Origin: a virus
DNA: 64,000 nt
IMG/VR virus record: IMGVR_UViG_3300036770_008686
Coordinates: 32,001 to 96,000 of that record
Strand: one strand, 5' to 3'
Under the pieces are notes generated by a model. That model saw nothing but the letters and a program-made list of their open reading frames with translations, was not told the DNA's origin and searched no databases. Below, in pieces: positions 1 to 63,842 of this stretch. Each line of letters opens with the position of its first letter. Position 1 is the first letter of the stretch. The position numbers and the translations under genes are program-made.

Positions 1-1184
1 TTACTTATATCTGGACCGTTTAAATGTGAATAGTCTTGACTTTTTGTTTGAATTTCATAATCTAAAAATTTCCAAGCCTTGTTAACACTGCCTATAATTT
101 TCCCATACTCTAATAGACTTATTCTTTTTTCTTTATGTAAATCTTCTTTCATTCTTAAAAGTTTTATAATATTTTTATTATTTAATTCATAGAAAACAGT
201 GTGTATAAAAAACACAGTATCAGATATTTGGTTAGAATATTTTAATTGATTTAATTTTTGTCGTGTTTCTTTTGGATCATTTTCTCTTAATATATAAGTA
301 ATTATTGCTGTCGAATCCCTAGTTTTGTTAACATTGCTATCGACTCTCACCTTAAGTCCAGGGAAAATAGTTTCCAAAAGACCAAGACTTTTAAAGCTTA
401 AAATATAGCTTTCAATATTTAAGCTGGTTTTTAGTCCGCTCAAAAACTCAGCACTTATTCTTTCTTTGCTTACACCTTTTAAATCTTTGTAATTGTCTAT
501 AGCGCTTATTGTTCTAGGGTCTAGGTGTTTTGAGATAATATCGTTGTTGAATCTTGAAAAAAATCTTATCAATCTTAACACTCTAAGTTTGTCTTCTCTA
601 AACCTCTCAAAAGGATCACCTACCACCCTAACTTTTTTGTTTTTAATGTCAATAAAGCCCTGTCCTTTTCCTTGGCTATCGATATTGTAGTCTTTTATTT
701 CTTTGTTGTTTAAGTCATAAAAAAGAGCGTTTATATTTAAATCTCTTCTTTTTGCGTCTTCTTTTGCATTGCTATAAGTAACCTCGTCTGGTCTTCTTCC
801 GTCGCCACTCAAAGAATCATAATATTCTTTTCTGAAGGTTGCTATCTCAAACTCTTTTCCGTTTACTATGGCACTAATTACTCCAAAACTAGCACCTTTT
901 GCAAAAACCTTAATACCAGCGGCGGCGGCTTCTGGAGAACTTAGTATTTTTTCAACCTGCTCGGGTGGTTGATCGGTGGTTAGATCTATATCTTTTGGAT
1001 TATATGGTACATCTTTTTGATGAAAAAGATGATATAAATAGTCTCTTATAGAACCACCTACTGCATACAGTTTTGCTCCAAATTTACTAAAAAGACCATT
1101 TAACATATGCACTTCGTCCGGCATAGGAACTTCTGCGGCAAGGCTCTCATACTCTTCAGTAATTAACCAATTTTTAAAATTCAT
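1..1184 (-). CDS. cca: CCA-adding tRNA nucleotidyltransferase (class II), 3' end runs off the window
   Basis: Missing from the ORF track; translated by hand from ATG at 1184: MNFKNWLITEE...VGGSIRD...KDIDLTT...RRDLNINAL...REDKLRVLRLIRF...VSKERISAEF, the class II CCA/poly(A) polymerase motifs. Confidence 0.9.
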   Translation of the reverse strand, partial: MNFKNWLITEEYESLAAEVPMPDEVHMLNGLFSKFGAKLYAVGGSIRDYLYHLFHQKDVPYNPKDIDLTTDQPPEQVEKILSSPEAAAAGIKVFAKGASFGVISAIVNGKEFEIATFRKEYYDSLSGDGRRPDEVTYSNAKEDAKRRDLNINALFYDLNNKEIKDYNIDSQGKGQGFIDIKNKKVRVVGDPFERFREDKLRVLRLIRFFSRFNNDIISKHLDPRTISAIDNYKDLKGVSKERISAEFLSGLKTSLNIESYILSFKSLGLLETIFPGLKVRVDSNVNKTRDSTAIITYILRENDPKETRQKLNQLKYSNQISDTVFFIHTVFYELNNKNIIKLLRMKEDLHKEKRISLLEYGKIIGSVNKAWKFLDYEIQTKSQDYSHLNGPDIS

Positions 1185-1223
1185 TATTATTATATATCAA
1201 ATTTGATTATTATTATATATCAA
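1183..1223. repeat. 23-bp-period tandem repeat that duplicates the TATATAA element upstream of cca
   Basis: attattattatatatcaa at 1183-1200 and 1206-1223. Confidence 0.85.
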
Positions 1224-1252
1224 TTTAACGTAGTTTTAAACTATAATATTTT

Positions 1253-1495
1253 ATGTATTTTTCTTCTAAAGAGTTGGACTTAGCCAAAAAATATGCGAGT
1301 GGAGACCTAACTGAAGTTCAATTAAACTATTTGGCTTTTCAAATAGGAACAAATAAAAGAAAGCTAAAAAAATTAGCTAAGTGCTTAAAAAACACAGAGC
1401 CTTTTTTTGTTGCCACTAAATTGTTACTTGGATTTATAATATTTCATCTTTTATTTTGTTTTTTTTATTCTTTATACAATGTTTTGATCTGCTAG
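1253..1495 (+). CDS. hypothetical protein with C-terminal TM helix
   Basis: 80 aa ORF with a hydrophobic C-terminus. Confidence 0.6.
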   Translation: MYFSSKELDLAKKYASGDLTEVQLNYLAFQIGTNKRKLKKLAKCLKNTEPFFVATKLLLGFIIFHLLFCFFYSLYNVLIC

Positions 1496-1563
1496 GTAAT
1501 ATATAATTATAGAACAAGATGTTCACATAAAAAAGATTTTTATGTTTTTAAAAAAGGAGTTTT

Positions 1564-2484
1564 ATGTTAAAAAAAGGATTTTTAGTATTATTATTGTTCA
1601 TACTGATTTTTTCATTAAGTTTTAAGAGTGCTCCGGCCACTAAGCAACCTGTTGCCAAGCCGATCAACGCCCCAAAAATAGAACAATATATTTCTTCTTA
1701 CCAGACATATGAAGAAATTATAACACGTTTTAAAGATTATGAAAAGGAATCACCAGAGCTTATAGATGTTTTCCAATATGGAAAAAGCTCCAAAGGCAAA
1801 GATCTTTATTGCGTTAAAATAAGCAACGAAAGAAAGCCTGGAGATAATAAGGTTTTAGTGACCGCTAGCATACATGGTAATGAGCCCTTAAGCACGAGTG
1901 TAAGCATGTCATATGTTCTTTACTTTTTAAGTAACTATAAAAAAGATAAAGAACTAACAAATCTACTTGACAAAACAACAATCTATTATGTTCCTGTAGT
2001 GTCGCCAGATAGTTATCCTCACTCTAGGAGTGTTGATAACGTTGATCCAAACAGAAACTTCCCAACTATCAAAGACCCAAACAAGGAAAGTATTTTGGTG
2101 GTTGAAAACTTAAAAAAACTTTTTTCTAAAATCAAACCACATAGTGTTTTATCTTGCCACACATATGGAAGAATGTTTTTGATCCCTTGGGGAGACAATA
2201 AAAAAGATTGTCCAAACCACAAGGATTACTATGATTTGGCAACAAAGATGGGTACCTCAGCAAACTATAGAGTCTTAAAAATATCTCAATTGTATGGGCA
2301 TCCAATATTTGGAACAGAAAGCGACTATTACTATAGAAATGGATCTTTTTCTATAGTAATCGAGTTGGGAACTCACCAAAAAAAGCCATCTTTTGAAGAT
2401 ACTAAAAAAGAGTTCGAAAGAACAATAATTAGCTTTTTAATGTTTGTTAAAGAGTCGCCTAAAATTAGGATTCTTGAAAAATAA
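1564..2484 (+). CDS. secreted M14-family zinc carboxypeptidase
   Basis: Signal peptide; ASIHGNE (HxxE), DPNRNFP, LSCHTYG and IELG motifs; aaggag RBS. Confidence 0.88.
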   Translation: MLKKGFLVLLLFILIFSLSFKSAPATKQPVAKPINAPKIEQYISSYQTYEEIITRFKDYEKESPELIDVFQYGKSSKGKDLYCVKISNERKPGDNKVLVTASIHGNEPLSTSVSMSYVLYFLSNYKKDKELTNLLDKTTIYYVPVVSPDSYPHSRSVDNVDPNRNFPTIKDPNKESILVVENLKKLFSKIKPHSVLSCHTYGRMFLIPWGDNKKDCPNHKDYYDLATKMGTSANYRVLKISQLYGHPIFGTESDYYYRNGSFSIVIELGTHQKKPSFEDTKKEFERTIISFLMFVKESPKIRILEK

Positions 2485-2490
2485 ACTAAT

Positions 2491-2805
2491 TTAGGCTCTA
2501 TTTAGGTATTTACAAACATCACAGAGGCCAGCCTCTTTGATGCCAACGTTACAGTCTACACAAAAACATCCTGTTTCGTTGTCCGGAATATGAGACTTCT
2601 TTAGTTCTTCTGGTATTTTGATTTTTATATGTGTTTCTATTTCCCAAACAACATCATCCTCATCCGTCGCTACAAGTCCATTTACAACATCGTAATTCAT
2701 ACTTTTAATTACTTTATTTCTTTTGCCTGCTTTTCTCATGGCGTCTTTAAAAAGCCAAATGAGAACATAAGAATTAAAATCAGATTCTAATTTAATGTTT
2801 GACAT
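2491..2805 (-). CDS. hypothetical protein with C-terminal Cys cluster
   Basis: 104 aa ORF with CFCVDC...CDVC. Confidence 0.6.
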   Translation of the reverse strand: MSNIKLESDFNSYVLIWLFKDAMRKAGKRNKVIKSMNYDVVNGLVATDEDDVVWEIETHIKIKIPEELKKSHIPDNETGCFCVDCNVGIKEAGLCDVCKYLNRA

Positions 2806-3016
2806 AAAATGATGAAAAATAGCTAAACAATAAAATAAAAGTATTAAAAGTCAAGAACAATATAATATTTAAAACGTAATTTGCGTTATAATTTCGATTA
2901 TAATTAATTTTAAAAATATCGACAATTATAGCTGCAACTGTGGAATAAACAAAGAACAAGACAATCGAAAGAACTCCTGCTGCTACTAAATTTCTAAATG
3001 TATTTAATAAGAACAT
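2792..3016 (-). CDS. small two-TM membrane protein
   Basis: Two hydrophobic segments; TATATAA 6 nt before ATG. Confidence 0.55.
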   Translation of the reverse strand: MFLLNTFRNLVAAGVLSIVLFFVYSTVAAIIVDIFKINYNRNYNANYVLNIILFLTFNTFILLFSYFSSFYVKH

Positions 3017-3022
3017 GATAAA

Positions 3023-3307
3023 TTATATATATCTAACTAAATACTCTTCTTCGCAGTCAATAACCATTGGAGAGGGTTTTAATTCATCAAACCACAACAT
3101 TTTTTGACAGTCTCCCCAAGCCTCTATACTAATTATTTCTATCCAACCAATGTTGGGTCCTCCGTATTTTTTTGGAAAAGCACAATAAAAATAGTTTCCT
3201 GGTTTAAAATTTTTACCCGGAATGAGGTGCGGTTTAACAAAACCATTTAAAGTCTTATGCATCTTTTTTATCTTCTTCAAAACATCCATAACCAGCTTGG
3301 TGTTCAA
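3023..3307 (-). CDS. hypothetical protein
   Basis: 94 aa ORF in operon. Confidence 0.6.
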   Translation of the reverse strand: MNTKLVMDVLKKIKKMHKTLNGFVKPHLIPGKNFKPGNYFYCAFPKKYGGPNIGWIEIISIEAWGDCQKMLWFDELKPSPMVIDCEEEYLVRYI

Positions 3308-3527
3308 AAGTTAGCAGTCCGACTCTAGGACTTTTATTGTTTGTGCAAACCCCCCAATCCATTCCTAATTTTCCTTCCAAAACAAAATAATGTTTACATC
3401 CACTGCTACAATCTGGGTAACTTTCATTATCTTTTTCCCAGCGTTCTACCTTTCCCCAAGGAATATAGTCTGTTGGGAGTTTTTTCATTATGTTTAACAA
3501 ATTGTCATGTAACTTGGTCATCATCAA
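3255..3527 (-). CDS. Cys-rich hypothetical protein (DUF3027-like)
   Basis: CSSGCKHY...DWGVCTN..SP..G..TFEH..C pattern; real start probably the internal MKKLP. Confidence 0.5.
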   Translation of the reverse strand: MMMTKLHDNLLNIMKKLPTDYIPWGKVERWEKDNESYPDCSSGCKHYFVLEGKLGMDWGVCTNNKSPRVGLLTFEHQAGYGCFEEDKKDA

Positions 3528-3723
3528 TATCTTTTTTAATAGAGCCAGATATTAGTTTAATAGGAGCACAATCGCAATGCACCGCCATCATTTCTTGGCA
3601 ATCATTAATCATTTCCCTGGCTTCTGTGTAGTCTTTGTCTCCCAAAGAGTTTTTAATTTTATTTTTTAAAATAGAAAGTTTAGAAGCCAAATCACAAAGA
3701 AGATAAATAGTGTCTTTATTCAA
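3505..3723 (-). CDS. hypothetical protein
   Basis: 72 aa ORF overlapping its neighbours. Confidence 0.55.
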   Translation of the reverse strand: MNKDTIYLLCDLASKLSILKNKIKNSLGDKDYTEAREMINDCQEMMAVHCDCAPIKLISGSIKKDIDDDQVT

Positions 3724-3743
3724 TTTAAGCCTTTAAAAAAAGT

Positions 3744-3783
3744 AAAGGCCTGTTTCACACACCCAAACGTGAAACAGGCCTTT
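3744..3783 (-). terminator. intrinsic terminator hairpin
   Basis: 15-bp perfect stem aaaggcctgtttcac/gtgaaacaggccttt with A/T runs on both sides. Confidence 0.8.
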
Positions 3784-3801
3784 ATAGAAAAAAAACTTTT
3801 A

Positions 3802-3960
3802 TCAGGAACTCTTCTCTATCGGAATATACTTAACACCGCTATCGGTGGTCTGGACAGTGCCAACTTTATACTTTGGGCTTTCTTCCTTAACCTTATTAAT
3901 CCATGCTTCAACATTAATATTGGGGTTGTCACCCAAAACAATTACACCTACTTGCGACAT
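3802..3960 (-). CDS. small hypothetical protein (52 aa, below ORF-track cutoff)
   Basis: MSQVGVIVLGDNPNINVEAW...IEKSS; GGAGAA RBS; followed by a terminator. Confidence 0.7.
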   Translation of the reverse strand: MSQVGVIVLGDNPNINVEAWINKVKEESPKYKVGTVQTTDSGVKYIPIEKSS

Positions 3961-4020
3961 ACTATTCTCCAAATCCTTTTAGGCAAATGAAAACCAAGAA
4001 CAAAGAAGAAACGTACCCGG

Positions 4021-4293
4021 TCAATTTTTTAAATTAGTTGTTAAGCCAAGAGACATCAACTTGCCTCTTATTGTTTCTTGGCTTGTTTGATACTTTTTAC
4101 TCAAATCTTTTATTCCATATTTCTTATACTTTTTTAGAAAATTTAATATAGAGTCTTTCATCTCAAAGCTTTCGCTTCTTGTGCATACCTGAATTTTGAC
4201 CACATCTTTCAAAAGCTTTTTAAGCTCGTTAGAAGAAACTTCTTTTGAAAAACTTTTTCCGCCTTTTTCATACTCAACTTTGAGCTTGCTCAT
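4021..4293 (-). CDS. hypothetical protein, possible C-terminal HTH
   Basis: GIKDLSKKYQTSQETIRGKL resembles an HTH. Confidence 0.55.
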   Translation of the reverse strand: MSKLKVEYEKGGKSFSKEVSSNELKKLLKDVVKIQVCTRSESFEMKDSILNFLKKYKKYGIKDLSKKYQTSQETIRGKLMSLGLTTNLKN

Positions 4294-4450
4294 TTCTCTA
4301 CCCTTCTTGGTTTTAAAAAGAACGCTAGTCTTGTAACCGCCTACGAAAAGGACAACTAACAGTCATCCGACAAAATAATATACGCTATTTTGCCACAACA
4401 GTTCAAGTGTTTTTTTATTTTTTATTTTCATATATATTTTTAGAAACAAA

Positions 4451-4891
4451 ATGGAAAAAGAATTTTTAAATAAAGACCAAATCAAGCAGGAAATTAAACA
4501 AGAAATAAAAGAGTTTAAAAAATTTGCCTTAAAAGAAGATACCATGAAAATAGCGATTGCTGTCATAGTGGGTGGCTCAATACAAAGGTTTGCCAACTCT
4601 ATATCGAATGATATATTATCGCCTATAATAAACCTTTTAGTATACAAACCAAGTGGGTTTTGGAACAAATTAGCTGTCAGCATCAACAAAGATACTAAAA
4701 TAGAAATAGGCAACCTAATAAGTTCATTTTTAGAATTTACAATAATATCTTTAATAGTTTATGTAGTTTATATGAAGCTAATAAAAAATTTAATTAAAAA
4801 TGAAAATATTAATAATAAGACTTGCAATCAATGCTTTTCTTCTATTAACTACATGGCAAAAAGATGTCCATATTGTACAAGTAGACTGTAA
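4451..4891 (+). CDS. mscL: large-conductance mechanosensitive channel MscL-like protein with C-terminal Zn ribbon
   Basis: EFKKFA...IAIAVIVGG...DILSPII (TM1), IEIGNLISSFLEFTIISLIVY (TM2), CNQC...CPYCTS tail. Confidence 0.82.
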   Translation: MEKEFLNKDQIKQEIKQEIKEFKKFALKEDTMKIAIAVIVGGSIQRFANSISNDILSPIINLLVYKPSGFWNKLAVSINKDTKIEIGNLISSFLEFTIISLIVYVVYMKLIKNLIKNENINNKTCNQCFSSINYMAKRCPYCTSRL

Positions 4892-4917
4892 AAAATAATG
4901 TTGTATAATTGTTGTTG

Positions 4918-5079
4918 ATGAACAAAGAAAAATTAGATTTATTTAAAATAAAAGAAAAGTGTGTGATCTGCAAGGAATGTACGCAATACGATAAAAATAC
5001 CCACATAAATAAAAGATACTTCTATGTAGATTGCGTAGGTCAATTGTGCTCAAAATGTTACAAAAAATTTGTAGTTTGA
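4918..5079 (+). CDS. small Zn-finger protein (53 aa, below cutoff)
   Basis: Hand translation MNKEKLDLFKIKEKCVICKE...GQLCSKCY. Confidence 0.6.
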   Translation: MNKEKLDLFKIKEKCVICKECTQYDKNTHINKRYFYVDCVGQLCSKCYKKFVV

Positions 5080-5102
5080 TATAATTTATAATATATAACT
5101 TT

Positions 5103-5711
5103 ATGTATTTTAAAAACTGGTTGAAACTTTTTGAACAAAATATGTTCTTATTGAGAGATAAAACTCAAAAATTAGATTTGGGAAAAATTCTTGGGTTTAA
5201 AAAACCACTTGTAAAATTTAGCCAAGGAAGCATAGCAACAATATACGAACACCCCAACACTAAAGACTTATTAATAAAAGTAACTTCGCACAAAGACGAT
5301 ATCAAAAATATAATCACTGCACAAAAACTAAAGAGCGATAACGTTGTAAAGGTCTTTTCTTGGCAAACCGGAGAGTTGGTAAAACAAATTCCACAAATAA
5401 ATTCATACGCAATAATAGTCGAAAAAATATTAGGCAACTCTATGAGTTACACAACCAATGAATTTTTTGAATTAAGCTTAGATGGAAGATTTGAATTAGC
5501 AGCAGATTGGTTAGATGGAAACCTTCACAAAAGACAAATAGCCGTACTAGAACACAATCAAAAAAACAATCTAAAAGAGCACTCCAAGCTAAATAGTCTA
5601 TTTCGTGTATTAAACAAATTAGAGAGTCTCTACAGAATAGAACTCTCAGATTTTCAAGATAATATAATAGACTCAGGAGATAGATATGTTATTGTTGATA
5701 TGGGATTTTAA
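5103..5711 (+). CDS. protein-kinase-fold protein
   Basis: SQGSIATIY (P-loop-like), LLIKVT, SDFQDNII, VIVDMGF. Confidence 0.6.
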   Translation: MYFKNWLKLFEQNMFLLRDKTQKLDLGKILGFKKPLVKFSQGSIATIYEHPNTKDLLIKVTSHKDDIKNIITAQKLKSDNVVKVFSWQTGELVKQIPQINSYAIIVEKILGNSMSYTTNEFFELSLDGRFELAADWLDGNLHKRQIAVLEHNQKNNLKEHSKLNSLFRVLNKLESLYRIELSDFQDNIIDSGDRYVIVDMGF

Positions 5712-6032
5712 TTTAGATGTCTCAAATTCACATCTAGTCTCATGTTCATCATAAATATAATTTAATTTTCTATTTAAAGTTTTTTCTATTTTTTTAATCA
5801 ATTTTTTTGTTATTTTTTCTCCACAATAAAAATTATTTCCTACAACTCTGGCCCTTCTTTGCGAATAGGGCAGGTCGATAATATCGCTTCTGGTGATATC
5901 GTATTTTTTTGAAAAGATAAAAGAAACAATGTCTCGCCAATAATCTACGTGATTGACATCTTGAATGTCGTAGATAATGGTGTCATCATCTAAAATATAG
6001 ACCGGGAATCCACCATCTGGTTCTTCAGGCAT
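5673..6032 (-). CDS. hypothetical protein
   Basis: 119 aa ORF. Confidence 0.6.
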   Translation of the reverse strand: MPEEPDGGFPVYILDDDTIIYDIQDVNHVDYWRDIVSFIFSKKYDITRSDIIDLPYSQRRARVVGNNFYCGEKITKKLIKKIEKTLNRKLNYIYDEHETRCEFETSKLKSHINNNISIS

Positions 6033-6516
6033 TGTTTTTCACATAATTTTTAGGCTTGATATAATTTGAACCCATCATTCTTATGAAAGTTCTAGTTCCA
6101 GTTTTCTTGCAAACAACGCCCTTGTGGGGTTTTTTGCTATCGTATACAAAAAAATATTTTTCGGGTATTTCATAACAAGGCTTATCTTTGAGCAAAGATT
6201 CAAGTAGTTTATTTTGAAGATTTCTATCATCAGGAAAACTAGAAAAGTCTATTTTTTCATCACAAAAAATAGTTCTATTTGGACCTTCGCAATAAATGCA
6301 ATATTCATTATCTTTTTTATAATCGCCATCCAAGTGATATCTAACATCAACACAAGTTTTATCGCCAACTTTACAACTTTTTATCATCAAATCTACTAGG
6401 TAGCAACTAAAATTATTGTTAATTTTAGTCTTCATCTCTTCGACTATTTCTTTGTACTCATTAAACCTTTTAATGAATTTACAGTAATCAAAATCTTTTA
6501 CAAAAATTTCATTCAT
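6025..6516 (-). CDS. hypothetical protein
   Basis: 163 aa ORF coupled to its neighbours. Confidence 0.65.
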   Translation of the reverse strand: MNEIFVKDFDYCKFIKRFNEYKEIVEEMKTKINNNFSCYLVDLMIKSCKVGDKTCVDVRYHLDGDYKKDNEYCIYCEGPNRTIFCDEKIDFSSFPDDRNLQNKLLESLLKDKPCYEIPEKYFFVYDSKKPHKGVVCKKTGTRTFIRMMGSNYIKPKNYVKNNA

Positions 6517-18273: not shown

Positions 18274-18389
18274 CGAGTTTTGCCCCCTGAAAGACAGCGG
18301 TATTGTAGCACGGACCATTTTTTTTGCAAATAGTTTTTTTTTAGAAACTAAAATAGAAATATAACCTAGTTTGGATAAGTTGCTGAAAA

Positions 18390-18463
18390 TAGGCCGACTA
18401 GGACTTGAACCTAGAACCCCCAAATTATGAGTTTGGTGCTCTAACCGATTGAGCTATCGGCCC
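18390..18463 (-). tRNA. tRNA anticodon CAU, probably Ile2 (lysidine); CCA not encoded
   Basis: GGGCCGA-TAGCTCAATCGGTTAGAGCA-CCAAA CT CAT AA TTTGG-GGGTT-CTAGG TTCAAGT CCTAG-TCGGCCT-A; lies 26 nt after the tilS stop. Confidence 0.92.
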
Positions 18464-18489
18464 ATTTTCAGAAACTTTTCACCTAAAAA

Positions 18490-26450: not shown

Positions 26451-26803
26451 TGGAGGCGAGGGGAGTCGAACCCCTGTGTTGTGATAATTTTAATATGACC
26501 TCTACAAGTTTATTTTGTTCATAAATTTTGAGAAAGACTAAAGAACAAACAACATTCATCTTTCCGTACCAACAAGTCTTAGTCTAGGACCCGTTGGCTA
26601 TCCTAGAAGCAGAAGGATTTTACGACGATTTTTCGGACGCTACCTTCAATCGCTTCCTAAAATCGTTGCTGCTATTTATTAAGCAGCAAGAGCTAACTGA
26701 TTTGTGCCAGTTAAAGCATTAATCTGGTTTTAAAGTAGCCTCCAGATCAACTACTACTTGCTAGTCACAGTAAATTTTATCCAATCGATACCTTTACGCC
26801 CCC
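26451..26803 (-). ncRNA. ssrA: tmRNA, tag peptide (A)ALTGTNQLALAA; CCA not encoded
   Basis: 5' GGGGGCG pairs with 3' CGCCTCC-A including G3:U70; T-arm AGGGG TTCGACT CCCCT; tag ORF at 26679-26717 with its stop in a ttgctgc/gcagcaa hairpin; 353 nt. Confidence 0.93.
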
Positions 26804-30882: not shown

Positions 30883-30953
30883 AGGCACCTATCGGAGTCG
30901 AACCGATCTCTACGGATTTGCAATCCGCTGCCTAACCGCTTGGCTAAGGTGCC
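30883..30953 (-). tRNA. tRNA-Cys(GCA); CCA not encoded
   Basis: GGCACCT-TAGCCAAGCGGTTAGGCA-GCGGA TT GCA AA TCCGT-AGAG-ATCGG TTCGACT CCGAT-AGGTGCC-U73. Confidence 0.93.
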
Positions 30954-34035: not shown

Positions 34036-34114
34036 TTTTTCTCCTTATAAGGTGGTTTTCAGAAAAACGTACCGAGTTTTCGAGGAAAATTAGTTTTAAA
34101 ACGTATATAATTTT

Positions 34115-34333
34115 ATGATAAGTTTTAAAGAATATGTTAAAAAAGTTTTCGGTGAAGATTTAGTTGGAATTTATCCTCCTTTGTATGGTGGCGTAGGAAA
34201 CTACCCCAAAAGCTACTTTACTACATACACACCTTACATTGATGCATCAAGAAAAGTAAAAACAAATCCTCCAAATAAGAAAAAAAGAAAGAAGAAAAAA
34301 AAGTCAAGAAGATCAAAAAGAAAGTCAACATAA
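34115..34333 (+). CDS. small basic protein with capsid-targeting-like N-terminus
   Basis: MISFKEYV...; K/R-rich tail; TATATAA 4 nt upstream. Confidence 0.6.
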   Translation: MISFKEYVKKVFGEDLVGIYPPLYGGVGNYPKSYFTTYTPYIDASRKVKTNPPNKKKRKKKKKSRRSKRKST

Positions 34334-42297: not shown

Positions 42298-42454
42298 TTA
42301 ATATTTCCATAATAGCTCTGGAGCAGCCGTCTATTTCGTAGATGGTTTCAGCATTGTGTTGATTAACTTCCACCTTAACACAATAATCTTTAATTATTGT
42401 AGCAAGCTCATAAAGATCTTTTATATCCTCTTCTTCTAGTTTTTTTCTTAACAT
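42263..42454 (-). CDS. hypothetical protein
   Basis: 63 aa ORF. Confidence 0.5.
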   Translation of the reverse strand: MLRKKLEEEDIKDLYELATIIKDYCVKVEVNQHNAETIYEIDGCSRAIMEILSVPEGTIERMF

Positions 42455-42969
42455 TTTAAACCTTTCATTCCTTGTTTTTTCATTTTCAAAATAACCTCGG
42501 CATTACCAATAGCGTCGTTCACAGGATTGTGATCATGTATTGTGTCTCTTAAATTTTTCCAAGAAGCTCGTGCATCTCTTACAAAACCACAATAAAGATC
42601 TCCAATTCTTCGACCACTATAACCAAAAGGATTTTCTCCAAGAAAATTGTGAAAATAATAATTTATCCACTGCCAATCATAGCATGGATTGTCGCTGATG
42701 AAAACAGGCCTATCGTTTTTACTGTTTTCTACTATCCAATCTCTAAAAGAAATCATCACCTGCTTAGGTTCGTCAAAAATTAAATGCTTTTCTCTAGAGA
42801 AGCCACTTATCTTTAAAGCCTCATGCAGATAATTTTCAGAAATAGGCTTTGTTTTACCATAAAAAGTTTTGTTCAGATATTCGTCAACAATCACAGCTCC
42901 AAAACAAACCATGCTATAAATCGGAGGAACCGGTCCATCGCTCTCTACATCTACAACTATTAGTGGCAT
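42448..42969 (-). CDS. DEDDh 3'-5' exonuclease (Rv2179c/DUF5051-like)
   Basis: VDVESDGP, SDN..YD, HNPVNDA; start moved to MPLIVV. Confidence 0.85.
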   Translation of the reverse strand: MPLIVVDVESDGPVPPIYSMVCFGAVIVDEYLNKTFYGKTKPISENYLHEALKISGFSREKHLIFDEPKQVMISFRDWIVENSKNDRPVFISDNPCYDWQWINYYFHNFLGENPFGYSGRRIGDLYCGFVRDARASWKNLRDTIHDHNPVNDAIGNAEVILKMKKQGMKGLKC

Positions 42970-43508
42970 GAATATTTTTCCCAATATAAAGAAGAGTAAA
43001 ATTTCCAAATAGAATCAATAAAAAATTTGGCAGTGATTAAACTGCTAGACTCAGCCGAAATAACACTTTCGGCATAATCTTCTGGTTCGTTTCTTGTTGC
43101 TGGTATGCTATGTCCAACGACTACCTCCCAAACAGGGATTTCTTTAAAACAAGATATTGTTTCAACTTCTTTTATAGAACATGCTATTGAAATTCCACAG
43201 TCTTCACATTCTATTATTTTTTCTTCATCATTAATTTTAACGTTAACAAAAGAGAAAAAATGCTTCATTGAATCTAGAATAATTTCCTTAAGTTCTTCCC
43301 AATTATTTTTGGCAAATTCCTCTAATTCGGGATATTTACCGTTATTGTGTTCCAACTCTAAAATTGGCTTTACAAATCTTTTTTCAATAGAAATTTTATT
43401 GCCATAGGTTTCAACTACAAAAATATTATCATGCTCTTCTAAAAGAACTCCTTTTATCCACTTTTCGCCTCTCATTATACCGACTTTTGTAAATACTTTT
43501 ATTTTCAT
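42960..43508 (-). CDS. hypothetical protein
   Basis: 182 aa ORF. Confidence 0.6.
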   Translation of the reverse strand: MKIKVFTKVGIMRGEKWIKGVLLEEHDNIFVVETYGNKISIEKRFVKPILELEHNNGKYPELEEFAKNNWEELKEIILDSMKHFFSFVNVKINDEEKIIECEDCGISIACSIKEVETISCFKEIPVWEVVVGHSIPATRNEPEDYAESVISAESSSLITAKFFIDSIWKFYSSLYWEKYSCH

Positions 43509-55135: not shown

Positions 55136-55172
55136 GCGATAAAAATATTTTATTTTTTATATATAAAATTGT

Positions 55173-55910
55173 ATGTTTAAATCTTTTGTTCTTAAGAAAA
55201 AAATTAAAAAAATTAAAAATGCAATAAAAAACTTAAGCTTAGAAACAATAAGTGAAAAAGTAGACATCAATATAGTAAAAGATATATGGAAAGACAACAA
55301 AGTAATATATTGGTTAAAATCTAATGGAATAGAAATAGTTACGCCACCTCCATATTCACTTGGAGGAAGTGGAATTGCCTATTTTTTACCAAATAACATG
55401 GTTGTAAAAATAACAGATGATATAGTAGAAGCAAATGTAGCAAAGATGCTTATAAAATCTAAAATAAAACATACAATGATAGATGTTGTTAAAATTAATA
55501 ACTTATATTTAATACTTCAACAAAAGTTAGACTTAAAAAAAACTTCAGAAGATATGAAAACAGCAGCCGATCTAGTTACCGTTATGATAGACGACAACTC
55601 CTTAGAAGAGTTTCCTGATAACAAAGAACTACTAAAAAATATGTGTATAAAAACAATAAAAGAAAACAACTTTCCAATTTCTATTCTAGATAAAATGCTT
55701 TTAATAATTGATACTCTAAAAGAGATAGAAAAAACAACAGGATATTTTCATGACGATGCAGGTCCTACAAACATAGGAACAAAAGATGGCAAAACATATG
55801 TTTTTGACTTAGGTCCAAATAAAACAAAAAGCTACAACCCTATGGAAAGGATTAAAAAAATAAAAACAAAAAGAGAAAAGTTAGGATTAAGCGATCACGA
55901 ATTTGAGTAA
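55173..55910 (+). CDS. protein-kinase-fold protein
   Basis: LGGSGIAY, VVKIT, EANVA, FHDDAGPTNIG, VFDLG. Confidence 0.65.
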   Translation: MFKSFVLKKKIKKIKNAIKNLSLETISEKVDINIVKDIWKDNKVIYWLKSNGIEIVTPPPYSLGGSGIAYFLPNNMVVKITDDIVEANVAKMLIKSKIKHTMIDVVKINNLYLILQQKLDLKKTSEDMKTAADLVTVMIDDNSLEEFPDNKELLKNMCIKTIKENNFPISILDKMLLIIDTLKEIEKTTGYFHDDAGPTNIGTKDGKTYVFDLGPNKTKSYNPMERIKKIKTKREKLGLSDHEFE

Positions 55911-57491: not shown

Positions 57492-57519
57492 AAAAGAAAA
57501 ACAAGGAGGTTTTAAAAAA

Positions 57520-58260
57520 ATGAAAATACTAGCTTACTATACTCATGGGTTTTCAAATGAATTTTTACCCATACTAAGACTATCAATAAGAAGCTTGAGA
57601 AAGTACAACAAGATAGACACCTTAGTATTATGTGATGAGCAATTTGAAAAAGATTGTAAGGCAATGGGAGGAATAGAAACTTTAAGCTTAAAAAATTCAA
57701 AAAAACCCGAGGATGCTTCAATGCACAAACTATCTGTTTTTTCTTTTGAAGAAATAAAAAATTACGATAAAGTAATTTTTATAGATAGCGACATAATAAT
57801 AGATGTTAAATTAAATAAAATAATAGAAAAATGTTTAGATGAACAAAAACTATACGCTTGCTCAGAATCAAATGATATCTCTTTACACAGAAATTTATAT
57901 TGGTCGCTAGAAAACTACACAGAAAAAGAAATGGAATTTTTTAAAAAAAATAAAATTTATGTATTTAATGCAGGGTGTTTTGTATTTACTCCAAATCAAG
58001 AATTTAAAACACACTTTCAAGAAATAAAAAATATTATAAAAGAACATAAAGGAAGCTACTTTTATGAACAATCATTTATGAATTTTTATTTTAATAAAAA
58101 AAATCTAGTAGACTACTCTGTTTTAAATGAAAAAAACTATATATTGCATGCGAATGGAGATAAAAAATATAGAAATTCAATAGTGCACTTTTGTGGAAAT
58201 CCTGGGGTTGCGGCAAACAAATTAGAAAGAATGAAAAAATATTTATCTACAATAAAATGA
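57520..58260 (+). CDS. glycosyltransferase family 8-like
   Basis: FIDSDI, FNAG.F, EQ.FMN, HF.G; start moved to MKILAY. Confidence 0.8.
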   Translation: MKILAYYTHGFSNEFLPILRLSIRSLRKYNKIDTLVLCDEQFEKDCKAMGGIETLSLKNSKKPEDASMHKLSVFSFEEIKNYDKVIFIDSDIIIDVKLNKIIEKCLDEQKLYACSESNDISLHRNLYWSLENYTEKEMEFFKKNKIYVFNAGCFVFTPNQEFKTHFQEIKNIIKEHKGSYFYEQSFMNFYFNKKNLVDYSVLNEKNYILHANGDKKYRNSIVHFCGNPGVAANKLERMKKYLSTIK

Positions 58261-58889
58261 AAACAAAAATAATAAGTTTTTACGCAGACATAGAGAATAG
58301 AAATTACTATAGCCTTTGCGGGCAAAAGTTAAAAGAGTCTCTTGAAAAATTCAACATAGAACACGAGATAGAAGAAATAAACTCATCTAACGACTATATG
58401 TTGAATTGCTTAAAAAAGCCTGGCTTTATACTCAAAAAAATACTTGATTGTAAAAAACCTTTAATATGGGTTGACGTGGATACAGATTTTAGATCTCCAT
58501 TTGAAGATTTTGATAAAAATGATTGTGATATAGGGTTTTGTAGTGATACAGGGGATGTAGAGGGTGTAAAGGCCTCTCCAATATATTTTAATTATAACGA
58601 GAACGCTTTGCTTTTTTTAAATAAATGGAAAGAAGAATGCGAAAAAGCCGTAATAGAAAAAAAAACAGAATTAGATCACGATGTAATAAAATACATACTA
58701 TTGCCAGAATTTAATAACAAAATAAAAATAAAAATATTATCAGAAAACTTTATAGATTTTTATAACGGAAAACACATAAAGAGTAGATTATCAAAAAATT
58801 TTGTAACAAAAAACTTAGCACACAAAAAAATAAAAGAAATAAATAGATACAGAAAAGGCTTGAGTAAAAAAGAATATAAAAGCTTATAA
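58257..58889 (+). CDS. GT-A fold nucleotide-diphospho-sugar transferase-like protein
   Basis: KPGFIL...WVDVD, SPIYF, LDHDV; start moved to MKTKII. Confidence 0.65.
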   Translation: MKTKIISFYADIENRNYYSLCGQKLKESLEKFNIEHEIEEINSSNDYMLNCLKKPGFILKKILDCKKPLIWVDVDTDFRSPFEDFDKNDCDIGFCSDTGDVEGVKASPIYFNYNENALLFLNKWKEECEKAVIEKKTELDHDVIKYILLPEFNNKIKIKILSENFIDFYNGKHIKSRLSKNFVTKNLAHKKIKEINRYRKGLSKKEYKSL

Positions 58890-58899
58890 AGAGGAAAAA

Positions 58900-59595
58900 T
58901 TGTTTTACGAAAAAGAAAAACAAAAAGAAATATTAACCAAAAAACTACTCAATAAGGAGTTTTTTGCTTTAAATAGATTTGGAGAAGGGGAAGTAAGAGT
59001 AATAATGAGCGGAGGAACAGGAGTATACTTGAGATGTATAGCAAAGTCATCTATAAGGGAATGGGAATACAATCCAAAAGAAGACAAGTACTTATACGAA
59101 CAATTATGTGAAAGCTTTTATTATAAAGAAGAAAACTACATAAAAGCATCGGTTGGTGGTGGCAAAAAAAATCAAGAAGAGTTTGTAAAAAAAAGCCTGC
59201 CAAACGAAGAGTTATTTACCACGACATACTTTTATGGAGATGACTATTACAATGATTTTTTCGAAACATACCTTCCTTTAATGCAGAAATATGAGTCCAT
59301 AAACTTTGTGTGTTCTAAACTGGCAAATTATAAAAATGTTAATATAAATTTTAAAAATGTCTACAATAGTTTTGAAATATCGAACGCATGGAAACAAAAA
59401 GAAGAAACTAAAAAAGTAATAGAAGAAATAAGCAAAACAAAAAATTCTGTATATATTTTTTCTGTAGGTTTTAATTCCAAAATAATGATTAAAAAGCTTT
59501 TCCAAGAAAACAAAAACAATGTGTATTATGACTTTGGTGCAAATTTAGACATAAAGCTATATGGAAGAAAAACAAGAGGGAAACACATGCCATGA
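58900..59595 (+). CDS. GT-D fold (DUF1792-like) protein
   Basis: RFGEGE...DFGA.LD pattern. Confidence 0.55.
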   Translation: MFYEKEKQKEILTKKLLNKEFFALNRFGEGEVRVIMSGGTGVYLRCIAKSSIREWEYNPKEDKYLYEQLCESFYYKEENYIKASVGGGKKNQEEFVKKSLPNEELFTTTYFYGDDYYNDFFETYLPLMQKYESINFVCSKLANYKNVNINFKNVYNSFEISNAWKQKEETKKVIEEISKTKNSVYIFSVGFNSKIMIKKLFQENKNNVYYDFGANLDIKLYGRKTRGKHMP

Positions 59596-60215
59596 ATATT
59601 TTTGTAGAGTATTTTAACCATAAAAATGAAAGAAGAAAAAGTGAAATAGATAAAACTCTTATTACAAATATTAATTTTAATTATATAAATAAATTTTATG
59701 TATTCTCTAATAAAGAAGATTCAGAAGAAGTTAAAAAATTAAATTTTAATAAAAAAATAACAAACGTCATAACAGAAGAAAGATGTACCTTTCAATATAT
59801 TTTTGACTTTGCAAACTCGGTTTGTGGAGAAGAAGAAATTAACATAACAATGAATAACGATATAATATTAAGCAAATCATTTAGCAATGTTAAAATTCCC
59901 AAAGAATGCTTTTTTGCAATAAGTAGATGGGAAAGAAACAACAACAATCATCCTTTTTGCTACAGAACTTGTGATTCCCAAGATTTGTGGATTTGGAGAG
60001 GAAAAAACAAAATGAAAGAATGTAACTTTTATTTCGGAATACTTGGATGCGACAACAGAATAGTACACATAGCAGAAGAATGCGGATATATAACAAGAAA
60101 CCCAGCATACACATATAGATGTCACCACAACCACGAATCCAAAGTAAGAATAGGTTCTAATGATGCAAGCCTAAGATTAAAAGGCCCATATAAAAAGGTT
60201 TGTCCATGTCATTAA
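59592..60215 (+). CDS. putative glycosyltransferase of viral glycan clusters
   Basis: R..EI...L..N, MNNDI, SRW, SQD.WI, G.LGCDNRI, NP......HHH. Confidence 0.55.
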   Translation: MNIFVEYFNHKNERRKSEIDKTLITNINFNYINKFYVFSNKEDSEEVKKLNFNKKITNVITEERCTFQYIFDFANSVCGEEEINITMNNDIILSKSFSNVKIPKECFFAISRWERNNNNHPFCYRTCDSQDLWIWRGKNKMKECNFYFGILGCDNRIVHIAEECGYITRNPAYTYRCHHNHESKVRIGSNDASLRLKGPYKKVCPCH

Positions 60216-60877
60216 AAGTATACACATTTTACACAGACAGTCACAAAAAGCTACTAGAAGAATACTTTATACCCACCTTTAATGAAACAAATAGCGATTT
60301 AAGTTTAGAAGTAAAAAAATTTGAACAAAAATGCAGTTCTGGAAACTATATGTCAAGTGGTTGGTATCAAATAATGATGAACAAGGTGGATTATATTCTA
60401 TCTAGCATAGATGAATCATGGGGAAAAGTTTTTATACACGCAGATTGTGACATTGTTTTTTTTGGATCTATAAAAGAAGATATCTTACAACAAATGGAAG
60501 AAAAAGACATAGCAGCTCAAAATGATGGAAATGAAATTTGTTGTGGATTTTTTGCCTGTAAGGCAAACGAAAAAACAAAAAGTTTATTCGAGCAAGTAAA
60601 AAAAGAGATGAATGAAAAATTCAATGATCAACAAGCAACAAATAAATTAGTCAAAAAATATGTATCGTATAAATATTTAAACGAAAGATACTATAGCATA
60701 TACAGAAATACAAATAAAAAAGTCTGGGAAAAGGGTGTGAATATAAATGAAAAAGAAATTCCAAAAGAAATGCTTGTATATCATGCAAACTGGACCGTTG
60801 GTGTTGAGAACAAAATAGAACTTATGAATAAGGTTAAAAAAATTATCTATGATAATAGAAAAAAACACAATTTATAG
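60200..60877 (+). CDS. nucleotide-diphospho-sugar transferase (GT77-like)
   Basis: ADCDIVF, CCGFF, DQ..TN, YHANW..G...K. Confidence 0.75.
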   Translation: MSMSLKVYTFYTDSHKKLLEEYFIPTFNETNSDLSLEVKKFEQKCSSGNYMSSGWYQIMMNKVDYILSSIDESWGKVFIHADCDIVFFGSIKEDILQQMEEKDIAAQNDGNEICCGFFACKANEKTKSLFEQVKKEMNEKFNDQQATNKLVKKYVSYKYLNERYYSIYRNTNKKVWEKGVNINEKEIPKEMLVYHANWTVGVENKIELMNKVKKIIYDNRKKHNL

Positions 60878-61784
60878 CAAGATAAGCGATTTGAGATCCT
60901 ACATATGTAGCGACATTTGTGAAAATCCAAAAAAAATATATGAAGAAATAAAAAAATTAGAAAATAATTTAATGGAAGGAGAGGTAAAAGTTCCCGAGGA
61001 GTTTAAACCCAAGATTAAAGTAACATATCCTCCGGAAAATTACTCTATATTTGAAGATTGGGTATCGGACAACTATACATCTAATTTTAGTAGAAAATAC
61101 CTACCTATTCACTGGACGAGCTATCATGTTAATAATAAATATGGAACAATAAAATCAGTAGTAAAAAGACTGCAGGATTATGTCGATAGCTTGCCCAGAA
61201 ATGAAAAATATTGGACAATTTGCCAATATGACGACGGAGTTTTAATAGACTTCAAAGACTTAGATATTTTAGTTTTTAGTATGAGTAAAAAGCTAGGGGT
61301 GGAGATTCCTTTGGTCTGTATGCCACATTCCTACAATCAAGAGAATAAAAAAAACATATTTGCTTCATTTATAGGAAAAGAAACACATCCAATAAGAAAG
61401 CATGTGCTAAATATTAAAAATTCAAATTATTATATATCAAGAGAAAATCACAATATACAAAAATATTGTGAAATAATGAGCAGATCAATATTTGGTTTGT
61501 GCCCCAGAGGTTATGGATTAAATAGTTTTAGAACATCAGAGTGTATGCAATATGAAACAATACCAGTTTACATAAGCGATGAATTTATAAGTGTTTTTGA
61601 TGCTGATTTTGAAGATTATGGAATAAAAATAAATCAAAAAGAAGCAGACAAAATTGAGCAAATACTAAATAATGTTACAGAAGAAGAAATAGAAAAAAAA
61701 AGAAAAAAAATAAAAGAATATTACAGTAAATATTATACTTATGAAGGCATGATTAAAAATATAGAAAAAAAATTATATGAATAA
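60849..61784 (+). CDS. exostosin-like glycosyltransferase (GT47)
   Basis: ASFIG..TH.IR, FGLCPRGYG..SFR..E....TIPV.ISD. Confidence 0.82.
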   Translation: MIIEKNTIYSKISDLRSYICSDICENPKKIYEEIKKLENNLMEGEVKVPEEFKPKIKVTYPPENYSIFEDWVSDNYTSNFSRKYLPIHWTSYHVNNKYGTIKSVVKRLQDYVDSLPRNEKYWTICQYDDGVLIDFKDLDILVFSMSKKLGVEIPLVCMPHSYNQENKKNIFASFIGKETHPIRKHVLNIKNSNYYISRENHNIQKYCEIMSRSIFGLCPRGYGLNSFRTSECMQYETIPVYISDEFISVFDADFEDYGIKINQKEADKIEQILNNVTEEEIEKKRKKIKEYYSKYYTYEGMIKNIEKKLYE

Positions 61785-61869
61785 AATAGAATTAAACACA
61801 GAAAGAATGCTGGGGTATGGTTTATATGAATAAAATAGAATTAAACACAGAAAGAATGCTAGGGTATGG
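61773..61869. repeat. 49-bp tandem duplication of a gene junction (1 mismatch)
   Basis: Copies at 61773-61820 and 61822-61869; g/a difference at 61812/61861. Confidence 0.9.
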
Positions 61870-62332
61870 CTCCTATAACAATGTAAACTACTTACATGGA
61901 TTAGATGATTTATGTAAAAAATATATTAAAAAAACAGATACAATATTAGAATTGGGAACAAACGATGGCATTAGTTCTGCTCTTTTTTCTTTTTATGCTA
62001 AACAAGTTTATACAATAGATTTAAAAGAACCAAGCGAAAGACTAAAAAAAGTTTTAAATGAACATAAAAATATAAAATTTATAAATGGATCTTTTTACGA
62101 AGAAATAAATAAATTAAAAATGAATTTTGAATTTATTTATATAGATGGAAATCATGACTACGACTCTGTCTTATCTGATATTAAATTTTGTATCCCGTTT
62201 TTAAAAAACAATATAATAGGTGGCCATGATTTTTTCGACAACAATTGCGACGTAGCAAAAGCCGTAAAATCATTTTTTTTTAACAAAAAAGTAAATTTAT
62301 TTAAAGATAGTTCTTGGGTGATAGAAATTTAA
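61826..62332 (+). CDS. class I SAM methyltransferase (Methyltransf_24-like)
   Basis: LELGT..G.S, IYIDGNH.Y..V..DI, GGHD. Confidence 0.85.
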   Translation: MNKIELNTERMLGYGSYNNVNYLHGLDDLCKKYIKKTDTILELGTNDGISSALFSFYAKQVYTIDLKEPSERLKKVLNEHKNIKFINGSFYEEINKLKMNFEFIYIDGNHDYDSVLSDIKFCIPFLKNNIIGGHDFFDNNCDVAKAVKSFFFNKKVNLFKDSSWVIEI

Positions 62333-62335
62333 AAA

Positions 62336-62956
62336 TTGAGGATAAAAATGAAAACAGAGCTATGCAACTTAATGGACAAATTCGGCAGCGACAAAGCTTC
62401 ATACCATAATTATACATTATTTTATTATGATTTATTGAAAGAAAAAAAATATCAAGAAGTAAAAATATTTGAAGTAGGGTTGGGGACAAACAACACTAGC
62501 ATACCATCTAACATGGGGGCAAATGGAAGACCCGGGGCCTCGTTGAGAGCGTGGAAAGAATTTTTTCCAAATGCAAAAATTTACGGAGCAGACATAGACA
62601 AAAATATATTGTTTCACGAAGAAAGAATTAAAACTTTTTTTTGCGACCAAACAGATGAAGTAAGTATAAAAAAAATGTGGGAAAACGATGAATTAAAAAA
62701 TGAAAGTTTTGATCTAATAATAGATGATGGTTTGCATGAAATTAATGCAAACATAAATTTTTTAAAAAATTCATTTAAAAAATTAAAAAATGACTCCGCT
62801 TTTATAATAGAAGATATAATAGCAGATAAAATAGATAGATATAAAGAAAAAATTCAAAATTTATCAAAAACAATGAACTTTGAGTTTGAAATTAAAAACT
62901 TTGATCATACAAACAAATATGATAATTGTATTTGTTTTATTAAAAAATTAAAATAA
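62336..62956 (+). CDS. class I SAM-dependent (sugar O-)methyltransferase, paralog of 27618..28262
   Basis: SDK...HNY..FY, FEVG, GASLRAW, GADID, DQ, IIDDGLH, IIEDI. Confidence 0.85.
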   Translation: MRIKMKTELCNLMDKFGSDKASYHNYTLFYYDLLKEKKYQEVKIFEVGLGTNNTSIPSNMGANGRPGASLRAWKEFFPNAKIYGADIDKNILFHEERIKTFFCDQTDEVSIKKMWENDELKNESFDLIIDDGLHEINANINFLKNSFKKLKNDSAFIIEDIIADKIDRYKEKIQNLSKTMNFEFEIKNFDHTNKYDNCICFIKKLK

Positions 62957-62957
62957 A

Positions 62958-63581
62958 ATGATAATACAAAAAATTGATAAAAATAAAAAAATAAGCCCAA
63001 GATATAAAACAATATTAGAAATATTAAAAAACATTCCAGACAAATCAAGTGGAATAGAGGTAGGAGTTTTACATGCAGATCTATCTATTTTTTTACTTGA
63101 AAATTGCTTAAAAATTAAAAAGCTATATTTAATAGATCCTTGGAAAAAATACAACAAAGAAGAATACGTTGACTCTGTTAATGAGAAATCGCAAAAAGAA
63201 TATGACGAAATATATTTGAGTGTAAAGCAAAGAATAAAAAGCCATGAAGAAAGAGTTGAATTGTTAAGAGGCGAGTCAAAGGAATTTGAAAATAAATTTT
63301 CAGAAAATAGTTTAGATTTTATATACTTGGATGCGAATCACATGTACGAAAACGTTTTTAATGATATTTCAACATGGTATCCAAAAATTAAAAAAGGTGG
63401 AATTTTATTTGGAAATGACTTTATGGAAGATGGCTACAAAATTTGGCAAAAAGATGTGTATGGAAAGCCAATTTGTTATGGAGAGTATGGAGTAAGAAGT
63501 GCAGTAAGAGTTTATTGCAAACAAAACCAAATCAATTACAGAAGCCCAGGCGAAAATCAATGGTATATCATAAAAAGATGA
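62958..63581 (+). CDS. class I SAM methyltransferase (Methyltransf_24-like)
   Basis: IEVGV..AD.S, IDPW, DFIYLDANH.YE....DI..WY..IK.GG...G.D. Confidence 0.87.
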   Translation: MIIQKIDKNKKISPRYKTILEILKNIPDKSSGIEVGVLHADLSIFLLENCLKIKKLYLIDPWKKYNKEEYVDSVNEKSQKEYDEIYLSVKQRIKSHEERVELLRGESKEFENKFSENSLDFIYLDANHMYENVFNDISTWYPKIKKGGILFGNDFMEDGYKIWQKDVYGKPICYGEYGVRSAVRVYCKQNQINYRSPGENQWYIIKR

Positions 63582-63842
63582 TTATAAATCTTTTCTCCAG
63601 TCAGTTTTACTGCCTTTCTTTCCTTTGCTTCTTTTCAATTTTTCCTTAGCATGAACCATTTTGCTGGCCCTAGGTCCAGTGTAATGTCCTATTGAGGCTG
63701 GTTTGGAGTATATTGGCATTTCTCCCTTTCCATCAATATAAAGTCTCCATTTTTTACAAAAATCTTTATCCTCGGGATGAGGACATTTTGTTTCATCTTT
63801 TTGAGATTCAACCAATTTTATATAGTCCACAAATCTTATCAT
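63582..63842 (-). CDS. small basic protein with capsid-targeting-like N-terminus
   Basis: MIRFVDYIKLVES...; K-rich tail. Confidence 0.6.
   Translation of the reverse strand: MIRFVDYIKLVESQKDETKCPHPEDKDFCKKWRLYIDGKGEMPIYSKPASIGHYTGPRASKMVHAKEKLKRSKGKKGSKTDWRKDL

Follow-up and report, generated by a model that had tools for sequence, protein, structure and literature searches.

Several otherwise unrelated proteins encoded by an uncultured virus begin with the same kind of short peptide, and we consider it fairly likely that this peptide serves as a capsid-targeting propeptide of the kind known from phage T4. The proteins are encoded in and around a stretch of 64,000 nucleotides (here called the window), which comprises bases 32001-96000 of the IMG/VR virus record IMGVR_UViG_3300036770_008686, a linear contig of 135,789 base pairs and 32% GC that was analyzed whole and is designated G0. 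This contig is a fragment, rated 68% complete by CheckV, on which a simple codon-usage caller supplied 213 genes and their starts. The shared peptide, hereafter the tag, follows the consensus M-x(1-2)-F-K-x-[WYF]-[LIV]-x(1-5)-E. It is a modular, phage-specific addition that lies outside folded domains, is selected as a peptide, and matches the determinants of the T4 signal. Proteins carrying it are probably packed into the virion.

A recurrent N-terminal peptide in G0

A preliminary description of the window had listed five proteins with N-termini of this type, all of which are indeed encoded where it placed them. Three tests, based respectively on internal frequencies, shuffles and a profile, show that the motif recurs beyond chance. 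First, the pattern F..[WY][LIVC] beginning at residue 3 or 4 is present in 8 of 213 proteins, whereas its rate at internal positions predicts 0.3 (Poisson 2e-9), and a longer pattern, F..[WY][LIVC].{0,3}[LIVF].E, occurs six times in the G0 proteome, each time at an N-terminus. Second, tags with a cleavage-type ending are observed six times, compared to a mean of 0.39 and a maximum of 3 in 2000 column-preserving shuffles. In these shuffles, each of the first 20 residue columns was permuted among the proteins, such that N-terminal composition was kept and the tags' own contribution was included. Third, because the patterns above were partly picked after the data had been seen, the unbiased test is a 12-column profile trained only on the tags of two related contigs, G1 (251 kb) and G5 (137 kb), which were likewise analyzed whole. 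The internal positions of G0 supplied the null distribution for the 852 tests made with this profile.

Five G0 proteins reach a per-position p value of 5.4e-5 or lower with the profile, a level at which about 0.05 chance matches are expected. These are a tRNA CCA-adding enzyme, which has the best score on the contig, a kinase-like protein of 202 residues, and proteins of 595, 123 and 77 residues. Four others, with 245, 86, 72 and 146 residues, score near 1e-3, where about 1.2 chance matches are expected. G0 therefore holds five strong and four weak cases among its 213 proteins. The common tag originally ascribed to five proteins thus stands firmly for the CCA-adding enzyme and the 202-residue protein, and is weak on individual scores for the proteins of 72, 86 and 245 residues. 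Tags that had gone unlisted include the strong example MKTFKEYCLNE, whose start lies outside the window, and three more upstream of the window. Glu terminates each of the seven G0 tags (ITE, LFE, LSE, LNE, LVE, FGE and YLE), and six of the seven endings open with L, I or F, the exception being YLE. Neither the enrichment, nor the column shuffles, nor the independent profile is consistent with the idea that shuffled AT-rich N-termini would suffice to produce the motif.

Some candidates were rejected. The peptide MISFRDWIVENS, at an internal Met of the open reading frame at window positions 42448-43008 (minus strand), is a chance match that sits inside a DnaQ-like 3'-5' exonuclease domain with the motifs DVESDG ... 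ISDNP ... HDHNPVNDA. The residues that follow this Met, ISFRDWIVENS, mimic a tag and constitute the best false positive of the profile. Two N-termini, MLSFGCWVCG (genome positions 102498-102842) and MNIFVEYF (window position 59592, plus strand), fit a loose pattern and fail the profile. We also noted a 167-residue protein encoded outside the window (genome positions 3574-4077, minus strand), adjoining the gene for the tagged 123-residue protein. It has a very basic head of 45 residues followed by an internal tag-like segment, YLE-NFSKWLTEQE-V, and possibly consists of two parts linked at sites of the protease type.

The class II tRNA CCA-adding enzyme (410 residues; window positions 1-1184, minus strand, with the gene extending 48 nucleotides beyond the window start) offers the clearest view of the tag as an addition to a known fold. 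Its tag, MNFKNWLITEE, occupies residues 1-11 (nucleotides 1184-1152) and is recognized both by the profile and among homologues. All matches to the catalytic family begin past this peptide: the Pfam PolyA_pol match (PF01743, E=6e-23) starts at residue 39 and the PHROG 2244 match at residue 37, and the solved CCA structures (human TRNT1, Planococcus and Geobacillus; E=1e-22 to 1e-13 for the human and bacterial structures) align only from residue 25-35. In an AlphaFold2 model with a mean predicted local distance difference test (pLDDT) score of 83.5, residues 1-9 fall below 50 and form a short detached helix, and the model becomes confident from about residue 11. The enzyme body itself appears intact in its motifs, since GG-x-x-RD, D-x-D, RRD and ED-x-x-R of the class II head domain are all present, and G43, G44, R47, D48, D65, D67, R146, R147, D148, E197, D198 and R201 are invariant in 17 CCA sequences.

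Homologues tell the same story. The tag is found within the first 45 residues in 86 of 120 CCA homologues (37-99% identity), in some cases behind spurious upstream start calls, and untagged homologues start where the tag stops (MEEKFDS... versus M-LNFRGFLETV-EEKFHS...). Among relatives in bacterial assemblies, sampled at one genome per prokaryote species and drawn from Verrucomicrobiota, Planctomycetota, Bdellovibrionota and other groups, 79 of 80 are untagged and align only from residue 12-40. The sole tagged sequence of the 80 lies on a 271-kb contig (CAYVOK010000001.1) in a metagenome bin that also holds two T4-type Gp23 capsid genes, and which must therefore contain phage DNA. The bin is labelled Acidimicrobiaceae, and giant-phage contigs appear to have been binned together with a bacterium. 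Cellular homologues thus do not share this N-terminus, and alignments, structures and model all place the peptide outside the fold, as an N-terminal extension.

Some CCA homologues are fusions of 699-716 residues (P0099-P0101, P0106 and P0107), in which the tag comes first and is followed by SSLRD(I/L)L..PQNP.HH.EG. The same SSLRD module, which is probably DUF5662, is a separate tagged protein in G1 (111654-112472; L096:11654-12469). RNA-end-processing parts thus seem to be tagged together or singly.

The tag of the 202-residue kinase-like protein (window positions 5103-5711, plus strand) is MYFKNWLKLFE, encoded by nucleotides 5103-5135 (profile p=5.4e-5). It is kept in 41 of 42 homologues (50-100% identity), whose layout consists of the tag, an indel-rich linker and a conserved body (...QRDKTQKSN.GKLLGF...). 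Structure matches in the ESM Atlas are to Pkinase, APH and T7-kinase clusters, with template modelling (TM) scores of 0.54-0.65, and mostly begin at residue 9-22. The second kinase-like protein (245 residues; 55173-55910, plus strand) carries a degenerate tag, MFKSFVL (profile p=8e-4), and its distant homologues begin MNFKSFLFKSE, MKFKEFVK or MEFKNWLVNLQE, with 14-16 of 68 being tagged. Its Atlas matches are to phage T7-kinase and Pkinase clusters, and the matches of the two proteins taken together span TM scores of 0.5-0.65. BLASTP detects no similarity between the two proteins, and their Pfam matches are sub-threshold only; both resemble phage T7-kinase, Pkinase and APH proteins at the level of modelled fold alone. 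A module related to the 245-residue protein is also present deep inside proteins of 1400-2300 residues (P0204, P0206, P0213, P0221 and P0229). The N-termini of these large proteins have a recurring GYPVP motif, and they may be multi-module phage polyproteins.

The remaining tagged proteins of the window are small and basic, with mature isoelectric points (pI) of 9.7-10.6. A very basic protein of 72 residues (34115-34333, plus strand; mature pI 10.6) begins with MISFKEYVKKVFGE, encoded by nucleotides 34115-34156 (profile p=1.4e-3), and all ten of its ten homologues keep MI[ST]F[KRS]E[YF][VI]..[FY]GE. Members of this family share a conserved core rich in Tyr and Pro (LVGIYPPLYGGVGNYP.SYF..YTPYIDAS), behind which come 15-20 residues that are exclusively Lys or Arg, and the family has no matches to known families. 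The 86-residue protein (63582-63842, minus strand; pI 9.8) has the tag MIRFVDYIKLVE, encoded by nucleotides 63842-63807 (profile p=1.3e-3), and no homologue was found in G1 or G5, the two contigs to which this search was confined. Only the C-terminal part of the 77-residue basic protein falls in the window (63846-64000, minus strand, of a gene that reaches 64079), which places its start 79 nucleotides past the window end. Its tag, MKTFKEYCLNE (profile p=5.4e-5), is the closest of all to the T4 peptide MKTYQEFIAE, and its G1 orthologue (41% identity) begins with MKSYKEYLLAEG and is encoded in the head gene cluster near a portal-sized gene. In the CCA, 202-residue and 72-residue families alike, the tag is kept across divergent orthologues while the linker that follows it varies.

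Head genes in related contigs and a promoter-like element

Comparison with relatives places the tag in a phage lineage that has T4-type head genes. Alignment of the CCA enzyme retrieved IMG/VR contigs of 251, 323 and 381 kb, whose tagged CCA genes are 62% identical, whereas an IMG/VR search with exact peptides of the 202-residue protein returned no relative. A megablast search with 8 kb of the window likewise gave no match among GenBank phages, where the virus therefore has no close relative. G0 and G1 share 84 of the 213 G0 proteins at a mean identity of 47.5%. A Peptidase_S77 prohead protease gene of the T4 gp21 type lies beside a Gp23-family major capsid gene in G1, in G5 and in another contig, G2, and a Peptidase_S77 gene was also found in a further contig, G9. 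The G1 protease carries the family motifs ELDHP and SSRG. With 78.6% identity between its capsid protein and that of LR756511.1, an uncultured phage of 595 kb, G1 points to a T4-related lineage whose members are very large. The G1 capsid protein starts with MNINAKFLNE and has more L-x-E sites ahead of its conserved body.

Tagged proteins are abundant in these relatives, with 26-28 in G1 and 20-21 in G5, compared to 1-7 expected. Ten of the G1 genes are grouped in a 21-kb region with the genes for capsid, scaffold, protease and portal, and this cluster includes orthologues of two tagged G0 proteins (123 and 77 residues) that are tagged as well. In G5, about nine tagged genes that are otherwise dissimilar follow one another in tandem. 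Across 49 tagged proteins of G1 and G5, mean column identity is 6%; M1 alone is invariant, and F4 is nearly so. Of 50 tags from the relatives, 47 have F and 3 have Y as the anchor residue; three residues later, 22 have W, 15 have F and 13 have Y, and Glu is the commonest residue at positions +5 and +8. The anchor is residue 4 in 40 of 61 tags from the three genomes and residue 3 in 16. Tagged proteins reach 971 residues and include folded enzymes, and Pfam matches among the 49 G1 and G5 proteins comprise PolyA_pol, P-loop kinases of the AAA_33 and Zeta-toxin types, SNF2 helicase, AdoMet decarboxylase, DUF5662 and DUF5872.

Many tagged genes also share an element immediately upstream of their start codons. 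The preliminary description had reported TATATAA at four of the five genes on its list, and this is borne out, with the element starting 11-13 nucleotides before the ATG and leaving a gap of just 4-6 nucleotides to it. Ahead of cca there are two copies of TTGATATATAATAATAAT (1189-1219, minus strand), with TATATAAT elements 12 and 35 nucleotides upstream of the ATG (1189-1196 and 1212-1219). On the plus strand, TATATAAC precedes the 202-residue gene (5092-5099), TATATAAT precedes the 72-residue gene (34104-34111), and TATATAAA precedes the 245-residue gene (55160-55167). The gene for the 86-residue protein has no promoter-like element and begins 3 nucleotides after its upstream gene. An element of the T4 late promoter type located 3-6 nucleotides before the ATG is present at 6 of 11 tagged versus 10 of 202 other genes in G0 (Fisher 2.5e-5), 10 of 29 versus 20 of 307 in G1 (Fisher 4.5e-5), and 13 of 21 versus 3 of 145 in G5 (Fisher 1.4e-11). 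It takes the form TATATAA in G0 and G1 and CTAAATAA in G5, where CTAAATAA-N(2-3)-CATG stands ahead of about nine tandem tagged genes (L108:10100-18300).

The TATATAA and CTAAATA forms resemble the T4 late box, TATAAATA, whose end is separated from the transcription start by about six bases. With the box only 3-6 nucleotides from the ATG, T4 spacing would cause the mRNAs to start at or beside the AUG. Furthermore, there is usually no Shine-Dalgarno sequence between box and ATG. If the box is a late promoter, this analogy suggests that many tagged genes have leaderless late mRNAs. Three tagged window genes lie on the plus strand amid minus-strand neighbours, which fits this idea. Several tagged genes have ordinary Shine-Dalgarno leaders.

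G0 also carries rIIA and rIIB, DNA and RNA ligases and AAA ATPases, and its far end holds myovirus baseplate genes, including a gp25-like protein and a spike OB domain. PHROGs and Pfam put names on few structural proteins of the contig. It encodes seven tRNAs and one tmRNA, none of which has an encoded 3' CCA (window positions 18389-18464, 26451-26803 and 30883-30953, and genome positions 3384-31377; tmRNA tag GTNQLALAA), and the cca gene directly adjoins a tRNA-Arg/Lys cluster. Given such a location beside tRNA genes without CCA, the CCA-adding enzyme is at least as likely to serve in maturing the tRNAs of the phage itself as in counter-defence, and this role is a sufficient and plainer one. 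If delivered with the DNA, the enzyme would simply be at hand from the first minute. It might also repair tRNA ends that host defences have damaged; the counter-defence role envisaged for delivered CCA enzyme and kinases is speculation.

What the tag might do

If the tag is a capsid-targeting propeptide, the proteins that carry it would be made late in infection. The short amphipathic peptide, with its aromatic residues three apart, would dock the cargo on the scaffolding core of the prohead, and a Peptidase_S77 prohead protease would then cleave after the Glu with which the tag ends. Once matured, the proteins would stay alongside the DNA in the head and travel with it into the next host. Cargo encoded in the window would be the CCA-adding enzyme, the two kinase-like proteins and the small, very basic proteins. 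For G0 itself, we infer both the possession of S77/gp23 head machinery and the events of cleavage, packaging, ejection and late expression.

We favor this explanation because the tag matches the T4 signal at its important residues, because the small tagged proteins are basic, and because the capsid protein of a relative has an N-terminus with L-x-E sites. It is also supported by the T4-type head genes of relatives, by the grouping of tagged genes around them in G1, and by the association of tags with the late-type element. Several observations hold our confidence at this level. There are no capsid, portal or prohead protease genes on G0, where searches with PF03420 and PF07068 gave no match, and its protease is thus deduced from relatives with a mean protein identity of about 47%. 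The commonest tag ending in these relatives is W-L-E-N-K-E, and a strict hydrophobic-x-Glu ending fits only 11 of 28 tags in G1 and 7 of 21 in G5, which makes the protease specificity uncertain. When 22 further contigs, most of them fragments, were surveyed for co-occurrence of tagged CCA genes and an S77 protease, several phages with the protease proved to carry an untagged CCA enzyme. Three of the five tags first listed are individually weak by profile. Moreover, about 8% of all genes would encode cargo, which is far above T4 and would be unprecedented. All of these points count against capsid targeting, and the case as a whole is built from sequence.

Unrelated phage proteins can share a leader for other reasons, and it is conceivable, though rather unlikely, that the tag is a recognition peptide for another process, for instance as a leader read by a modifying enzyme, as a degron that times turnover, or as a signal that directs proteins to some other structure built by the phage. 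The large share of tagged genes, which is high for capsid cargo, and the many tags in relatives without a strict L/I-x-E ending would both be accommodated by such a process. However, the tag has the residues that are critical in the T4 signal (PMC9026906), and the tagged genes of G1 cluster around head genes. Tagged proteins as long as 971 residues that include folded enzymes are also unlike peptide precursors. No partner enzyme was noticed, although no systematic search was made for one.

Far less probable is a signal at the level of the mRNA, whereby the conserved nucleotides would promote translation initiation on the leaderless or short-leader transcripts of late genes. The strong association of tags with the AT-rich element 3-6 nucleotides before the ATG, and the many tagged genes without a Shine-Dalgarno sequence, are what such a signal would lead one to expect. 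This idea is largely refuted by the codons themselves. Conserved Phe residues use TTT 33 times and TTC 24 times, Leu is encoded by TTA, CTA, CTC, CTT and TTG, and the second aromatic position alternates between TGG, TAT and TTT. The distance from the AUG also shifts by 1-3 codons, with the Phe at residue 3, 4 or 5. Mixed synonymous codons and a shifting Phe position indicate selection on the peptide rather than on the mRNA, and the tagged genes with ordinary Shine-Dalgarno leaders point the same way. Least probable of all is that the peptide has no common function, being either built into the structure of each family or produced by chance from AT-rich codons: a genome of 32% GC favours the codons of F, K, N, I, Y and L, and the DnaQ-like exonuclease does contain one high-scoring internal match, but the tag lies outside folds, homologues occur with and without it, and the enrichment over internal background and shuffles, together with the recovery of tags by an independent profile, refutes this notion as far as sequence statistics go.

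Returning to capsid targeting, we offer a broader proposal more tentatively, as something that is possible but that we would not bet on. A giant T4-related lineage would tag dozens of proteins per genome and inject an enzyme kit together with its DNA, with many of the cargo genes expressed from leaderless late mRNAs whose promoter adjoins the start codon. On this same doubtful footing, the kit would include the CCA-adding and kinase-like enzymes and, in relatives, P-loop kinases of the polynucleotide kinase type, an HD phosphohydrolase, an SNF2 helicase and AdoMet decarboxylase. Should the tags function as they do in T4, a phage would deliver far more protein at infection, and of far more kinds, than model phages suggest, and enzymes of the RNA-repair type and signalling enzymes could be active ahead of all phage gene expression. 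Virion cargo of uncultured giant phages could then be predicted by a simple rule from sequence, and the T4 protein-delivery tag, which is already in use for engineering, would gain natural variants.

Comparison with known systems

In the T4 capsid-targeting sequence (CTS), the residues at positions 4, 7, 8 and 10 are Y4, F7, I8 and E10. The tags described here have F or Y at residue 3-4, W, F or Y three residues later, then L, I or V, and then Glu 1-6 residues on. For the comparison by sequence, the T4 features were taken from two papers (PMC9026906, PMC8442874). T4 internal proteins are cleaved once beside a CTS of about ten residues, MKTYQEFIAE, and any protein fused to the CTS gets packaged (PMC8442874). 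The T4 protease gp21 cuts after L/I-x-E, and suppressor mutagenesis of the CTS has shown that targeting depends mainly on residues 4 and 7 and processing on residues 8 and 10 (PMC9026906). Like the CTS, the tag is an N-terminal peptide of 10-14 residues on unrelated proteins, in which positions 4 and 7 are aromatic, an aliphatic residue comes next, and a Glu stands at about position 10-12. It differs in that F and W take the place of Y and F, and in its variable distance to the Glu.

Known giant phages provide a second point of reference. In phiKZ, 201phi2-1 and SPN3US, a gp21-related protease cuts after Glu, and many proteins, including a virion RNA polymerase, are loaded into the head (PMC5694885, PMC9026906). 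The lineage described here is similar in its giant size, in the gp21-type protease of its members related to G0, and in its many candidate head proteins. However, the propeptides of these three phages are mostly longer than 100 residues and have the cleavage motif S/A/G-x-E, whereas the tag has the length of the T4 signal and a T4-like sequence. Our literature search found no paper on such tags in metagenomic giant phages. Among phage class II CCA-adding enzymes (PHROG 2244), the enzyme of the window belongs to the same catalytic family and has its invariant motifs, and it is set apart by the extra N-terminal tag, as is most of its subfamily.

T4 remains the nearest parallel in genome organization as well. 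Small basic cargo recalls the T4 internal proteins (PMC8442874), the S77 protease and gp23 capsid are those of T4, here in relatives, and the tandem arrays of diverse tagged genes in G5 resemble the T4 ip loci. The differences are ones of scale and content. This is an uncultured lineage known here from sequence alone, the nearest GenBank record being a 595-kb genome, and it has dozens of tagged proteins per genome where T4 has a handful. Furthermore, its candidate cargo is rich in enzymes, with the CCA-adding and kinase-like proteins of G0 being joined in relatives by AAA_33 P-loop kinases, an SNF2 helicase and AdoMet decarboxylase.

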